DNA of 37,784 nt from a virus (Duplodnaviria > Heunggongvirae > Uroviricota > Caudoviricetes). The position numbers and the translations under genes were made by a program. A model generated the notes under the pieces. It had not been told where the DNA came from, ran no database searches, and saw nothing but the letters and a program-made list of their open reading frames with translations. The DNA is taken from positions 1 through 37,784 of the IMG/VR virus record IMGVR_UViG_2529292883_000004. One strand, 5' to 3'. Every line of letters begins with the position of its first letter. Positions within the stretch are counted from its first letter, which is position 1. Shown piece by piece: positions 23,040 through 27,615 of this stretch.

Positions 23040-25019
23040 TCATCGTCTCACTCCTGCAAGCCTCATATGCAGCGGTATTTTCTTACGGGGTGTCTCCGGT
23101 GCTTTTGCGCCCGGCATACTTAAACTGATTTTTTCTTCCGGCTGCGCGGGAGGCGGCTCCATGAATGACAGATCCTGCGCCGCCCGTTCAGCCAGACTGT
23201 TCAGTTTCAGACCGTGATGCAGCAGCCCCTTCAGGGCCGCGTAACCGTACACCATGCAGTCCAGCGCCTCATTCGCCCGCCCGGCAGACAACTCCCAGAC
23301 ACGGTACACCTGCCCGCCGTTCTCCTTACGCACCAGACGCTCAGAGAGCAGCTGACTGAAATAATGCAAATCCAGAAACGACGGAAAATGGATACAGCCT
23401 GCGGCAGGCGCGCCTGCCGGATCCGGCTCAATATGGAGCCGGTGCCTGATGTCGTCCTTCGCGGAGTTCACCCCCAGAATGACGGGGCGGAAGGATTTCC
23501 GGTTGCGGGACGAAACGACACGCGTCGGCCAGACAGGGTTACGTTTACCGCCCGTCGCCGACTCACCTTTTGTCGCCCAGATACGACGCCCGATACGCGC
23601 CTTCGAGAACTCATACACTTTGTTGGTGTGATGACCGCCCGAGTCATGGCAGACCGCCGAGAGCGTCAGCCCGAAACCGTCAGCCCGCCGCCAGACCTGC
23701 TTCAGATACGCATCAAGGCGCTCCCACGGCTCTTCTGTTTCAAGGTCACCAAAAATCATGTCATGCGCAATCACCCAGCATTCTTCGTTCATGCCCCAGC
23801 CGAGAACGGTGATTTCGAAGCGGTCATCCTGCGTATCCACCCCGGCGGTGAGCAGGAGCACGCCATACGGCACCTCCGCCCCCCAGACCTCAACGCGGGC
23901 GATCAGCCGCTGCTCACTCATCGCAAACTCGCCTGCATCCTCGTAAGGCTCGCCCAGCGTGGTATTGATGAATGTCTGGCGCATCAGCGGATCGTCCTTC
24001 ACCCTCAGCCATTCGGCGACCAGATTCGGCCAGGAGGCATTTGAGTGCGGGCTGTAGCCCGTCCAGATATGAAAACCGGCATGCCCCCTGAATGGTGCAC
24101 CGGCGCGCCATTCGCCTTTTTCCAGCATCCCGGGCAGTTCACTGTGCACAATCACACAGCCGTGGTGGCGGCACAGGTAGTAAGCGGTCTCCGGCAGCCC
24201 GTTATCTTCGCTGTCCTTTTCCCACTTGATGCCGTAAGGGGTGCTTTTGCTGCCCCACTCCAGCACCTGATATTCACCGCAGTGAGGACAGGGCACGAAG
24301 TAGCGGCGCTGATCGCTTTCCAGCCAGGCTTTTTCAATACGGCTCACGCCTTTCACGGTTGGCGTTGAGCCGAGAACAATCTTGCGGTTCCAGAAGGTTT
24401 CGGAACGTTTTGTTCCCAGCGCAATCTGATCCCCTTCGGACCCTGCGCCCCCTGCCGGATACCCGTCCACCTCATCAAAAAGGATGATGCGGCATGTGAT
24501 ACGGCGAAAACCGCCGGGGGAGTTGGCCCCGACCAGCGTGAGGTTTGCGCCGTTGGAAAAGGTTTTGCGAAGAATGGTCTGGTTGCTGTTTTTTGCCTTC
24601 GGGTCGCCGCTGATGGCTGCCAGCACCGGCGTGTCGCGCAGCATCGGGGCAATTTCGGTTTTACTGTAGTCTTCGGCATCCTCCACCCTCGGCTGAACCA
24701 CCAGGATGGGGGACGGATCATGTGCCAGGTAATAGCCCACCACATGATCAAGAATTTTCGTGTATCCCACACGGGCTGATTTCATCACAGACACATACGT
24801 GACTGACGGGTCGGTGATGGCATCCATTATGCCGTCCTGATAGGGATAGGAGCGGAATTTCCCCGTCTGGGCACTGGTCTCACGGGACAGTACAGCGAAG
24901 GTGTTGGCCCACTGGCTTAAGGATAATGGCGGCGGAGGCGCAAGATAACGCGGACACGAAAGCAGCGCATCCTCAAACTGTATCTCCGTGGGTTTCGCGC
25001 CTGTCAAATGCAAGTTCAT
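23040..25019 (-). CDS. Terminase large subunit (lambda gpA-like)
   Basis: 659 aa; motifs VMKSARVGYTK, ILFDEVDGYP, CPHCGEYQVLEWG, FHIWTGYSP and NEALDC parallel lambda A as recalled. Confidence 0.9.
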   Translation of the reverse strand: MNLHLTGAKPTEIQFEDALLSCPRYLAPPPPLSLSQWANTFAVLSRETSAQTGKFRSYPYQDGIMDAITDPSVTYVSVMKSARVGYTKILDHVVGYYLAHDPSPILVVQPRVEDAEDYSKTEIAPMLRDTPVLAAISGDPKAKNSNQTILRKTFSNGANLTLVGANSPGGFRRITCRIILFDEVDGYPAGGAGSEGDQIALGTKRSETFWNRKIVLGSTPTVKGVSRIEKAWLESDQRRYFVPCPHCGEYQVLEWGSKSTPYGIKWEKDSEDNGLPETAYYLCRHHGCVIVHSELPGMLEKGEWRAGAPFRGHAGFHIWTGYSPHSNASWPNLVAEWLRVKDDPLMRQTFINTTLGEPYEDAGEFAMSEQRLIARVEVWGAEVPYGVLLLTAGVDTQDDRFEITVLGWGMNEECWVIAHDMIFGDLETEEPWERLDAYLKQVWRRADGFGLTLSAVCHDSGGHHTNKVYEFSKARIGRRIWATKGESATGGKRNPVWPTRVVSSRNRKSFRPVILGVNSAKDDIRHRLHIEPDPAGAPAAGCIHFPSFLDLHYFSQLLSERLVRKENGGQVYRVWELSAGRANEALDCMVYGYAALKGLLHHGLKLNSLAERAAQDLSFMEPPPAQPEEKISLSMPGAKAPETPRKKIPLHMRLAGVRR

Positions 25020-25590
25020 TCAGCGCCTCGTAAATCAGTTCCTGCAATGCCGCCGTGAATCCCTGATCGTCTGTCATCCCCGCCAGCGCCCGCAGACGGG
25101 GACCATGTTCCGGCGCAAGGGCAACAAGGCGCGTCCTCACCCGGGTATACTCCGCCCCGACCCGCTCAATGATGGGTTTCCAGGGAAGCAGTGTCCCTTT
25201 CTTTTCGTCATACTCGAGTTTTGCCAGCAGCGCGAAGTAGTTCTCTTTCATGGTTCTGGCTTCATCGAGCGTCATCATAGCTCCGTGGCTGGCAATGAAC
25301 TGTTCGACCCGTGCTTCTTTCGATACATCAGAGGAGTCATCGTACAGGGCAATGCTGTTACCTTCGTTGTTACCCGGAGTGTTACCTTCGGGTGTTACCC
25401 TGTTACCGAAAGTGTTACCTTTTTGCTCATTTTTTATTCGGGTAACAGTTTTCCGGTAACGCCGGATCCGCTCGTTTGAGGCATCAACATCGATGTCCTC
25501 ACCGTCCAGAACCAGCCAGCCACGGGCCTTCCACGCCGTTACCGTCTTGCGACTGACACCGTGAAGTTTTGCGAATTCCGCCTGATTCAT
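24973..25590 (-). CDS. Terminase small subunit (Nu1-like)
   Basis: 205 aa with an N-terminal HTH (MNQAEFAKLHGVSRKTVTAWKARGWLVL), just upstream of the large subunit gene. Contains a low-complexity GN-rich linker encoded by GGTAAC repeats. Confidence 0.8.
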   Translation of the reverse strand: MNQAEFAKLHGVSRKTVTAWKARGWLVLDGEDIDVDASNERIRRYRKTVTRIKNEQKGNTFGNRVTPEGNTPGNNEGNSIALYDDSSDVSKEARVEQFIASHGAMMTLDEARTMKENYFALLAKLEYDEKKGTLLPWKPIIERVGAEYTRVRTRLVALAPEHGPRLRALAGMTDDQGFTAALQELIYEALNELAFDRRETHGDTV

Positions 25591-25625
25591 CTGTTACCCT
25601 CTGTTACCTGTTACCCAAATTTCAA
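25350..25625. repeat. Array of at least 9 GGTAAC(A) hexamer repeats inside and just upstream of the small terminase gene (candidate terminase-binding, cosB-like sites)
   Basis: Plus strand shows gttacc repeatedly at 25365..25480, and three more copies immediately 5' of the ATG (minus strand gggtaacaggtaacagagggtaacag-ATG). Confidence 0.55.
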
Positions 25626-25821
25626 AATTTTATAGCTAGCGAAACACCGCGCTCGCGCAATGCCCGTGCAATAACTCGCTCAGGAAGGACCCGTTACCCT
25701 GCCAGGCGACAGTGTCGATATCCGTCTGCGGTTTCAAAAATCTCAAGATAACGATAAATCACAATGCCATCACAAAACCCTGTGATGATTTTTTCACGAC
25801 TGATGGTTTTCATATATTTCC

Positions 25822-26025
25822 TCACGTTTCATCAGACAATAACGCAACCAGATGGCAGGTCGCCTCCTTATTGAGAGGGAACACGAGCGTTTCACCTCCT
25901 GTGCGGTGGATATACAATGTCCTGCCCCCGGATTCATCTCTTTCAACATCAAGATATGAAACAACGGGGCGGCATATCGCTATGCCGCGTTCGCTAATGT
26001 GAGTTTTGTTTATGAGGTTATTCAT
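25822..26025 (-). CDS. Hypothetical small protein
   Basis: 67-aa ORF with no recognisable motif; orientation matches the late operon. Coding status uncertain. Confidence 0.25.
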   Translation of the reverse strand: MNNLINKTHISERGIAICRPVVSYLDVERDESGGRTLYIHRTGGETLVFPLNKEATCHLVALLSDET

Positions 26026-26110
26026 GGGAATACTCTCCGAATTAAATACACTTCTGGAAAAGATACCACTCTGAAAAAAACTTCAGTCAGTCCCACAGGA
26101 AATAGAAGAT

Positions 26111-26302
26111 TTGAAGCGAAGAGTTGCTGAACTGGAATCGAACCATTGTTCTGCAACCAGCGCACAATTCTGTCCCAAATGCCAAAGAGCGTCTTTTCAG
26201 CTCGACAGAACTGAAAATGATCCAACATTTGGAGTATTAGGCCTTCAGCGGGACATTTATGTTTGCAGAGAGTGTGGTTACTCTCGCCATGAATCACGTT
26301 AA
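26111..26302 (+). CDS. Hypothetical small zinc-ribbon protein (CxxC...CxxC), opposite strand to the late operon
   Basis: 63-codon ORF with a TTG start and paired CxxC motifs (CPKC ... CREC). It overlaps a minus-strand ORF of odd composition. Only one of the two is likely real. Confidence 0.3.
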   Translation: MKRRVAELESNHCSATSAQFCPKCQRASFQLDRTENDPTFGVLGLQRDIYVCRECGYSRHESR

Positions 26303-26350
26303 TAAAAACGCTGCTGGCACGTTCTTTCTTCAGGGCAGCAATGCCCTGCA

Positions 26351-27016
26351 TCACTTCGCCGTCTTTAAAGCCTGTTCAAGCACCACACTCAGCTCCGTCT
26401 TCATGAGACGCGATGCCATGTTGTGCGCCAGCGCCTGATAACCCAGTACCGGCGTGACCGGCAGTGCATCACCAAAACGTATCAACAGCTTTGGTGAGCG
26501 GCTTTTTTTGCGGGGAGCGCGTGTGCCATTGGGGGAGCGTTTTCTCCGCTTCCTGGTTTTTGCCACTTTTTTCGCTTTCTTACGCTGCCAGACGCCACCA
26601 ACATCCTCACCATAGTTGTTCGTCACCTTACCGATGAACACATCCGGTCTGGCCTTCAGCTGTTGCAGTTTTGCCTTTGGCAGGTTGCCGTATTTGTTCA
26701 GCCGGATATTTTTCGGGTTCAGTACAGCTTTCTGCCCCTCACCGAGATAATGCAGCCCGCCCACCTCAAAGGGTTCAAGGTAAGGCACGGCGGTATCCAT
26801 GATGAACACCCGACCGGTCAGATTGTCCCTTGTTGCCCCTTTTGAGCGCACCGAGTTCACGGTGAACGGCGTCGGGTTATCCAGCTTCCGGCGAAGGTTT
26901 TCTTTCTCTGCCGCTTCAATTTTTCTCACCGTGGCAGTGATGGCGCGCGCAGTGGCAAAACGCACCTGCTTCTGCATTCCCAGAAGCTGTCTGTGAAGGT
27001 CGTTAAGGTCAGCCAT
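26351..27016 (-). CDS. Hypothetical protein with a strongly basic K/R-rich C-terminal segment
   Basis: Start chosen at the ATG at 27016 (MADLNDLHRQ...) with an AGGTGG RBS. Contains KKAKKVAKTRKRRKRSPNGTRAPRKKSRSPK. No family recognised. Confidence 0.55.
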   Translation of the reverse strand: MADLNDLHRQLLGMQKQVRFATARAITATVRKIEAAEKENLRRKLDNPTPFTVNSVRSKGATRDNLTGRVFIMDTAVPYLEPFEVGGLHYLGEGQKAVLNPKNIRLNKYGNLPKAKLQQLKARPDVFIGKVTNNYGEDVGGVWQRKKAKKVAKTRKRRKRSPNGTRAPRKKSRSPKLLIRFGDALPVTPVLGYQALAHNMASRLMKTELSVVLEQALKTAK

Positions 27017-27083
27017 ATTCCACCTTCTCATGCTGCATTATCGCAGCCCCTCACTGAAGGGCTGCCCGGATTAACCAGCAGAA

Positions 27084-27615
27084 TCACACCATTCCGGGCA
27101 AATACATTTGCACTTCATTTGCTGCTCTCTCACGAGCAACATGAAGCAATCTTTTTCGCCCACCAACGCCCCACTTAGCCATTTGGCTTGCGCACTGGCT
27201 TATCGCTTTGGTTTCAGTATTGATGATGTGATCGATTCTATTCAGACGGGACATTGCGCCAACGCCGAGACGGACAACCGTTTTGAAAACTTCATAAACT
27301 TCGATTTCAAATTCCGGCTTAATCCATGCTGCATATCTGATTGCCAAAAGTTCAACACCCCACACACCTGGTTCTGCACCACCTTTGATTATTTTAAGTG
27401 GTTGAATTTTTTTCCAAAGTGCTTTTTTGCACTTTGGCCTCCAGTGCTTTTATGAAGCGTTTTATCTGCGCGCTACGCAAAAACTGGCTTGGGCGCTGTT
27501 GCTCTGTAGCCTCTCCATTTGCAACTGCTGCTGCATGGAGATCGTTTAAGTTGTAGCGTCCGTCCTCATCAATACGAACGGACACACCATTGACAATAAC
27601 TGTTTGGTACTTCAT
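27084..27615 (-). pseudogene. KilA-N domain gene split by a frameshift at a T7/A7 homopolymer
   Basis: ORF 27394..27615 (MKYQTVIVNGVSVRIDEDGRYNLNDLHAAA...) and ORF 27084..27365 (...GVELLAIRYAAWIKPEFEIEVYEV...) together match a KilA-N domain but are in different frames. The junction is at the run of seven T at plus 27407..27413. Confidence 0.6.

Follow-up and report, generated by a model that had tools for sequence, protein, structure and literature searches.

GGTAACA repeats in and ahead of a phage small-terminase gene as the probable cosB of a lambda-type cos region

The virus record IMGVR_UViG_2529292883_000004 of IMG/VR (Caudoviricetes) has been analysed over its whole length of 37,784 nucleotides, referred to below as the window, with the focus on a cluster of the hexamer GGTAAC that lies inside and immediately upstream of the gene for the small terminase subunit (terS), adjacent to the gene for the large subunit (terL). 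The features of the region are given below by their positions in the window; numbers preceded by "bp" are counted from the predicted left end of the phage chromosome, and HTH stands for helix-turn-helix.

23040-25019, minus strand: terL, of the lambda gpA type (Pfam GpA_ATPase, 1.3e-76; GpA_nuclease, 7.1e-81).
24973-25590, minus strand: terS, 205 aa (PHROG 57, "terminase small subunit", 7e-28).
25357-25419, minus strand: distal array of six direct GGTAACA copies, bp 245-307 (25414-25419, 25402-25407, 25394-25399, 25381-25386, 25369-25374 and 25357-25362; spacings 12, 8, 13, 12, 12).
25441-25460, plus strand: inverted pair of GGTAAC, bp 204-223 (25441-25446, or bp 218-223, and 25455-25460, or bp 204-209; 14 bp apart).
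25538-25543, minus strand: GGTAAC within the HTH-coding part of terS, read as AAG ACG GTA ACG (K-T-V-T).
25592-25615, minus strand: proximal sites, the tandem GGTAACAGGTAACA at bp 49-62 and a third GGTAACA at bp 66-72.
25610-25615, 25603-25608 and 25593-25598, minus strand: the three GGTAAC copies 5' of the start codon (25590).
25616-25651, minus strand: I2-like spacer CGCGGTGTTTCGCTAGCTATAAAATTTTGAAATTTG between cosN and the first repeat.
25652-25663, minus strand: predicted cosN with a 12-nt 5' cohesive end, GCATTGCGCGAG, assigned by homology to the end of phage BZS1.
25686-25692, minus strand: cosQ-like heptamer GGGTCCT, whose start is 29 nt ahead of the predicted nick in cosN.
25693-25698, minus strand: a thirteenth GGTAAC, abutting cosQ on the left.

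There are 27 copies of the hexamer in the window; dinucleotide-preserving shuffles give 12.9 +/- 3.6, and none of 100 shuffles contained as many. Twelve of the copies fall within 25357-25615, a stretch for which 0.09 would be expected at the background rate (Poisson P ~4e-22); ten of them are on the strand of terS and two are inverted. The cluster described in an initial annotation made from the sequence is therefore real, and so are the three copies it placed directly 5' of the start codon, where the minus strand reads GGGTAACAGGTAACAGAGGGTAACAG-ATG and the third proximal GGTAACA overlaps the ribosome-binding region and abuts the ATG. The same annotation counted six copies encoding a linker rich in Gly-Asn (GN). 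An array of six does lie in the linker part of the gene and encodes GNTFGNRVTPEGNTPGNNEGNS, but only five of its copies are read as Gly-Asn codons, the copy at 25394-25399 being in another frame (agG GTA ACa, Arg-Val-Thr). Its list also missed the two inverted copies, which are translated within R-Y-R-K-T-V-T, and the copy in the HTH-coding part. The latter is found in BZS1 and in the related locus L014 and is replaced by ACGGTCACC in Citrobacter phage phiNP and locus L013; it is probably incidental. The thirteenth copy is probably not a core part of the system either, because GGTAAC occurs within 120 bp to the left of cosQ in only 10 of the 82 distinct cos regions of the GGTAAC class.

In the AlphaFold model of TerS, residues 1-47 are predicted to form a winged HTH (helix-turn-helix, beta hairpin, helix) with a per-residue confidence (pLDDT) of 81-84, residues 48-90 constitute the linker, predicted to be disordered (pLDDT ~30), and the C-terminal domain is modelled as helical with low confidence. 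A disordered linker of this kind can tolerate whatever sequence the DNA dictates. Comparison of the whole model with the PDB by Foldseek yielded no significant match; only the N-terminal 45-50 residues were aligned, with winged HTH proteins of the MerR/excisionase type (Pukovnik Xis, BldC, RacA; E >= 0.38) and, also without significance, with a lambda-like TerS complex (6hlk). Matches of the TerS alignment profile to cellulases among PDB sequences were discarded as spurious, and nothing else matched. The family comprises 548 matches with lengths of 193-251 aa that track the number of GN repeats. In the source records (NCBI/UniRef, RefSeq) most of its members are named "RNA polymerase subunit sigma-70", a name that was almost certainly given in error on account of the HTH and then propagated.

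The DNA ahead of terS was compared, without gaps and with GGGTCC as the anchor, with both ends of lambda and with the corresponding regions of relatives. The GGGTCCT heptamer of the window is identical to lambda bp 48473-48479, the right-end heptamer that starts 30 nt before the lambda nick and that we take to be cosQ, and it is kept in every related cos region compared. Conservation of cosQ among lambda-like phages has been described (PMC4669245). In Serratia phage vB_SspM_BZS1 (BZS1), the virion ends have been mapped by PhageTerm on virion reads and by sequencing of the virion ends against the prophage junction, and were found to carry a 12-nt 5' overhang, GCATTGCGCGCC, 62 bp upstream of terS (PMC7556043). 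The corresponding sequence of the window, GCATTGCGCGAG, shares 10 of these 12 bases, and the two mismatches, at bp 11-12, are located in the half of cosN that is variable among lambda-like phages (PMC4669245); terS starts at bp 75 in BZS1 and at bp 74 from the predicted end in the window. Another sequence, AGGTCGCC at ~25855-25866, was first taken as a lambda-like cosN and then ruled out, the BZS1 end being homologous to 25652-25663. The spacer that follows cosN is collinear with lambda bp 13-48, CGCGGGTTTTCGCTATTTATGAAAATTTTCC, and is conserved across all of the motif classes described below. It includes, at 25620-25632, the region's only near-match, with one mismatch, to the consensus of the integration host factor (IHF), which is not significant alone, though conserved; the scan of the window for this consensus gave 18 matches against 20 expected, that is, no excess over chance.

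The repeats begin about where cosB would be expected, with the first GGTAACA tandem at bp 49-62, and the first site is found at bp 46-49 from the left end in all six motif classes. We consider it very likely that the GGTAAC(A) repeats represent the cosB of a lambda-type cos and are recognised by the predicted winged HTH at the N-terminus of TerS. A cosB-like role had been offered as a candidate in the initial annotation, and the comparative evidence, namely the position of the repeats, the mapped ends of a relative, co-variation with the TerS HTH and retention of the motif at the nucleotide level, strongly supports it. Because only 74 bp separate the chromosome end from the start of terS, such a cosB has its distal half inside the gene, and since the distal sites serve also as codons, it is the DNA sites that largely determine the linker sequence.

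Among cultured phages, BZS1, in which the repeat layout is the same as in the window, and phiNP are closest, with TerS proteins ~55-59% identical to that of the window (~55-58% for BZS1); a small number of E. coli prophages show near identity to the window. A megablast search of the phage collection with this region returned nothing; tblastn against the same collection retrieved phiNP, BZS1 and four weak matches. Among 80 genome loci, GGTAAC is the hexamer most over-represented beside terS, which holds for proteins as little as 30% identical and for GC-rich Burkholderia, Pseudomonas, Pandoraea, Acetobacteraceae and Devosia; conservation in related phages, a check proposed in the initial annotation, is thus borne out.

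A group of relatives with long leaders (L121, L063, L061, L082 and others) has the same TerS HTH and no GN linker, and all of their sites are non-coding and upstream of the gene. In L121, L063 and L082 two direct sites are followed by two inverted ones, by 3-4 direct ones and then by the ATG, with spacings of 11-13 bp as in the window. The two maps below give the bp positions of the direct (>) and inverted (<) sites.

Window: 49> 56> 66> ATG(74) ... 204< 218< / 245> 257> 265> 278> 290> 302>
L121: 48> 55> / 136< 148< / 164> 176> 189> 201> / ATG at 210

At the corresponding place of the layout, the long-leader relatives and the GTCCCA class introduced below have two inverted sites 12-13 bp apart. 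The preserved layout consists of a tandem direct pair, a spacer, an inverted pair and a direct array; in the architecture of the window the spacer is taken up by the HTH-coding segment, and the distal sites are read also as codons of the linker. The number of copies in the array varies among the E. coli prophages, whose TerS proteins range from 201 to 251 aa, and since some of these prophages carry arrays expanded by duplication of a unit, the copy number of cosB is evolutionarily labile. Examples are E. coli EC12 (L003, 1740-1930) and the proteins P0001, P0007 and P0008 (TerS 237-251 aa), where the duplicated unit contains one inverted and about three direct sites (KKTVTR-x-KNEQKGN-x-LGNRVTPEGN). 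The repeats are not mentioned in the paper describing BZS1 (PMC7556043), and a full-text search of a literature library found no paper containing the tandem GGTAACAGGTAACA.

Two groups of loci show additional variation around cosQ and cosN. In Pandoraea (L073, L074 and L076) a cosQ-like GGGTCCTTCC, TTTTGAAATTTG and the GGTAAC tandem are retained, and the sequence at the position of cosN is unlike GCATTGCGCG (e.g. GCAGGGCGGGAGCG); the cohesive-end sequence may have changed here within one cosB class. In Xenorhabdus (L013, L075 and L024) 2-3 extra copies of GGTAAC are located 21-43 bp to the left of cosQ, at the future right end of the chromosome, and might have a role in termination or be remnants of recombination.

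The viral contigs of IMG/VR were scanned with the cosQ...cosN anchor only, so that cos regions were picked independently of TerS; together with the genome loci this resulted in ~135 distinct cos regions with a recognisable repeat. The cosQ and cosN elements stay the same throughout, while the repeats found at bp 46-62 form six classes, each with its own TerS HTH. The classes are listed with the HTH signature and, where distal sites are translated in the linker, with the dipeptides or tripeptides that they encode.

GGTAACA: signature VS(R/K)KTxTxWK; GGTAAC gives Gly-Asn and GTTACC gives Val-Thr.
(AT)GTCCCA: signature V(D/N)RKT(I/V)xRWI.
GTTCGCA(C): signature SDxLVR(R/K)A; TGCGAAC gives Ala-Asn and GTTCGCA gives Val-Arg-Ser/Thr.
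GTTTCA: signature VSHTAVSKW; TGAAAC gives Glu-Thr and GTTTCA gives Val-Ser.
GTCCGCA: signature CDEKQVRRA; TGCGGAC gives Ala-Asp and GTCCGCA gives Val-Arg-Thr.
GTTACAC: HTH signature not defined, TerS marked only by LCEALGW.

Apart from the GGTAACA class, three more short-leader classes thus have their distal sites in the TerS linker, and in each of them the repeated dipeptides are the translated motif of the class. The GTTACAC class, seen in the viral contigs L103 and L157, appears to have a third arrangement of sites and domains: an N-terminal low-complexity extension of TerS, rich in GVT, NVT and AVT, would overlap the sites, and the DNA-binding domain seems to be encoded further downstream (LCEALGW at ~bp 200-215).

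The pairing of motif and HTH was matched in 80/81, 31/35 and 8/11 cases, with zero off-diagonal and the rest devoid of a recognisable signature, counts that overstate independence, given that many of the loci are phylogenetically related and that the signatures were set after viewing the same data. Cleaner evidence than this table is provided by a two-by-two comparison of recombinants. Loci L036 and L038 match the window as closely as BZS1 does in TerL (76-81% identity), in the TerS C-terminal domain (57-61%) and in the upstream gene (54-63%), yet their TerS N-terminal domain is only 45-47% identical to that of the window and their repeats are GTCCCA; in the enterobacterial short-leader GGTAAC loci the N-terminal domain is 77-87% identical. 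Conversely, L063 and L121 have an N-terminal domain 79-81% identical to that of the window and GGTAAC repeats, yet only 32% identity in TerL and 33% in the TerS C-terminal domain. In these sequence comparisons the repeat motif strictly follows the N-terminal domain of TerS and not TerL, the TerS C-terminal domain or the upstream gene. The logic is the same as that by which the specificities that lambda and 21 show in packaging have been defined (PMC4669245).

The repeats might instead be operators at which some DNA-binding protein distinct from TerS, for instance a host factor or a late-gene regulator, controls transcription or translation of terS-terL. Repeats both inside and ahead of a gene are typical of autoregulatory operators, and the position of the third proximal copy, over the ribosome-binding region and against the start codon, would suit such a function. 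Nevertheless, this explanation appears unlikely: a promoter scan of the terS strand predicted nothing of the sigma-70 type close to the repeats, the motif goes with the TerS HTH, and the fixed distance of the first site from cosN in all classes fits packaging rather than transcription. Furthermore, a host factor could not switch its motif within one host genus, whereas the loci from Xenorhabdus and Photorhabdus include both the GGTAAC and the GTCCCA class. The initial annotation had also allowed for binding sites of a regulator; the data can be explained without a separate one. In addition, TerS itself could have an autoregulatory function.

Constraint on the repeats at the DNA level was assessed from codon counts in distinct GGTAAC-type terS genes, 61 of them for Gly-Asn codons and reading frames and 79 for the next codon and the spacing. 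Gly-Asn is written GGTAAC in 179 of 208 cases (86%) in terS, against 7 of 63 (11%) in the adjacent terL (Fisher 2e-28). In the same 61 genes the hexamer is found 34 times in the x-Val-Thr frame and 96 times inverted, as Val-Thr (GTT-ACC). The codon following an in-frame GGTAAC begins with A in 234 of 241 cases, so that the actual motif is the heptamer GGTAACA, whereas the initial annotation had named the hexamer with an optional A. This preference extends to synonymous codons: arginine at this position is encoded by the rare AGR codons 34 times and by CGN once, whereas AGR accounts for 79/572 arginine codons in these genes from residue 101 on, their C-terminal part, and serine is encoded by AGY 15 times and never by TCN. 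The distance from copy to copy is mostly 12 bp (123 cases in coding DNA and 27 in non-coding DNA, where some are 11 and 13 bp) and is not imposed by coding, because non-coding DNA shows the same spacing. At the nucleotide level the site is retained whether it is coding, out of frame, inverted or non-coding, and the codon data point to selection of the repeats as DNA, not as protein.

These data bear on the possibility that the array is a by-product of a slippage-prone (Gly-Asn)n linker, with the upstream copies due to chance or to ribosome binding and the DNA itself functionless. Slippage would agree with the different copy numbers in close E. coli relatives and with the predicted disorder of the linker, but we regard it as very improbable in view of the near absence of synonymous codons, the rare AGR codons after the motif and the maintenance of the heptamer inverted, out of frame and also outside coding DNA, where its distance from cosN is fixed. 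Moreover, the long-leader relatives hold the entire site layout upstream of a gene without a GN linker, and in other classes the dipeptide repeats match the DNA motif of that class.

A pac-type site for headful packaging, the other packaging signal considered in the initial annotation, has as its closest model the pac site of P1, where TGATCA/G hexamers, clustered in pacA on either side of the cut, are under the control of Dam methylation; P22 and SPP1 have intragenic pac sites as well, likewise similar to hexamer clusters in a small-terminase gene. The window shares with P1 several hexamer copies inside the small-terminase gene as a putative packaging recognition signal; it differs in its predicted cohesive ends, in a cut located outside the clusters and in hexamers without GATC, and given also a TerL of the lambda gpA type, the collinearity of the cosQ heptamer, cosN and the I2 segment with lambda and the defined 12-nt 5' cohesive ends of BZS1, there is hardly any chance that the site is pac and not cos.

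If the repeats are the cosB, its function can be outlined by analogy with lambda and with phage N15. The winged HTH domains of TerS would bind GGTAACA, and TerS bound to the proximal tandem would position the gpA-type TerL to nick cosN ~48 bp away, a step modelled on R3 of lambda and N15. The distal inverted and direct sites, ~140-250 bp further in, would offer many weak contacts to TerS, taken to be oligomeric and flexibly linked. The stretch that separates the proximal from the distal sites would probably be looped or wrapped, stabilising the initiation complex; this last step is a conjecture, because no IHF site similar to I1 of lambda is found between them. Comparable arrangements are the R3-I1-R2 hairpin of lambda (PMC4669245) and the wrapping models for ring-shaped small terminases (PMC7617512).

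The system shares with lambda cos the GGGTCCT heptamer 29-30 nt before the nick, a 12-nt 5' overhang, here a predicted one, a homologous I2, a gpA-type TerL, the first putative TerS site near bp 49, sites in both orientations, a predicted winged HTH at the TerS N-terminus and a specificity that appears to be set by pairs of TerS N-terminal domain and cosB, as between lambda and 21. In contrast, lambda has three 16-bp R sequences instead of 11-13 copies of a 7-bp GGTAACA, which is unrelated to the R sequence at the same position, and its terS starts at bp 191 rather than bp 74, so that only here is the distal half of cosB intragenic and linker-coding. The job proposed for the distal sites is done in lambda by R2 and R1 with IHF, and rR2 has been proposed for it in N15. 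In that phage, R3 at bp 48-59 is "positioned similarly to R3-lambda", and an inverted accessory copy, rR2, lies inside the TerS gene at bp 249-260 (Feiss laboratory, PMC4669245). Common to N15 and the window are a proximal site at ~bp 48 and an inverted copy in the TerS gene ~150-200 bp further in (here bp 204-223); however, the motifs are unrelated in sequence, N15 has a single intragenic copy, proposed to be non-essential, compared with 8-9 in the window arranged as an inverted pair and a direct array, and only in the window do intragenic copies set amino-acid repeats of the linker. The closest folds to the predicted TerS N-terminal domain, although not significant, are the winged HTH proteins of the MerR/excisionase type (lambda and Pukovnik Xis, BldC). 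Xis and BldC bind direct repeats head to tail, and the presumed TerS sites are direct repeats about one helical turn apart, whereas proteins of this type act in recombination or transcription, not in packaging; binding of the window TerS as a head-to-tail filament is a speculation.

Several observations weigh against the assignment of the repeats to a cosB bound by TerS, in addition to the reservation on the class counts given above. With a 7-bp period the tandem leaves too little room for two HTH domains to sit on the same face of the helix, and in the interval from the proximal to the distal sites the IHF-consensus scan found no counterpart of lambda I1. For this prophage the cohesive end is predicted from homology to BZS1, with the base differences noted. 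TerS of the window has no match to Pfam Nu1 (Phage_Nu1) at E <= 0.01, and its sole Pfam match, HTH_28, is below the cut-off (E 0.008); the designation "Nu1-like" of the initial annotation therefore holds over the N-terminal HTH only, where the protein is 24% identical to lambda Nu1 (pairwise E 7e-4). The structural matches of the N-terminal domain to winged HTH proteins are not statistically significant, so that the assignment of the fold rests on the secondary structure in the AlphaFold model.

Several neighbouring genes on the other side of cos deserve mention. The ~650 bp between cosQ and a minor-tail-like gene (25700-26350) are absent from the E. coli prophages L003 and L004, in which that gene ends ~20 bp before GGTAAC/cosQ, and may represent a moron-type insertion next to cos. 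Two minus-strand open reading frames (ORFs) in this segment, of 67 aa (25822-26025) and 43 aa (25694-25825), have no Pfam or PHROG match. A plus-strand ORF of 63 aa (26111-26302) contains two CxxC pairs and shows a weak match to A2L_zn_ribbon (E 6e-4, below the cut-off); in its place RefSeq annotates a minus-strand ORF of 110 aa (26022-26354). The minor-tail-like gene itself (26351-27031, minus strand; PHROG 1924 "minor tail protein", 6.7e-50) is located just upstream of cos and away from the structural genes, a position that is conserved in all motif classes and that was remarked on for BZS1 (PMC7556043). Further on, two adjacent minus-strand ORFs (27084-27365 and 27394-27615) match the N-terminal (5.6e-8) and C-terminal (8e-4) parts of KilA-N, respectively, and look like a single gene interrupted by a stop codon or a frameshift.

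The cosB site, the R sequences, specificity swaps and a single remote intragenic site (rR2 of N15) are already known. What is new is the form of the probable cosB, with 11-13 copies of a heptamer in an ordered layout of direct and inverted sites; the overprinting of terS by its distal half, which dictates the linker repeats and recurs in four specificity classes; and the breadth of natural specificity classes on a single cosQ-cosN core. A wider proposal, which we put forward tentatively and with more doubt than confidence, is that in this widespread phage family cosB, the TerS DNA-binding domain and the linker make up one contiguous, self-contained packaging-specificity cassette, in which the proximal sites are followed by the HTH-coding segment and this by distal sites read also as linker codons, and which can be exchanged as a unit between terminase lineages, the linker repeats being a passive translation of the binding sites (GN/VT, AN/VR, ET/VS or AD/VR, depending on the motif), and that TerS bound within its own gene may feed back on terS-terL expression. 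If true, this would be an unusually clear case of a cis-acting DNA signal dictating protein sequence, in which the recognition protein and its site are interleaved such that recombination is unable to separate them.

A packaging signal that fixes both codon choice and amino-acid repeats would be an unusually clear instance of overlapping codes, of relevance to gene recoding, to the use of dN/dS and to the reading of low-complexity linkers. At least six natural packaging specificities on a constant core would constitute a ready-made system for the study of how the TerS HTH reads DNA, with a possible use in the design of orthogonal cosmid or transduction systems. For the prophage in the window, the virion ends are predicted at 25652-25663. 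More generally, the repeats would supply the missing cosB for a large and barely annotated group of temperate phages and prophages whose hosts include Enterobacterales, Burkholderiales, Pseudomonas and some Alphaproteobacteria.

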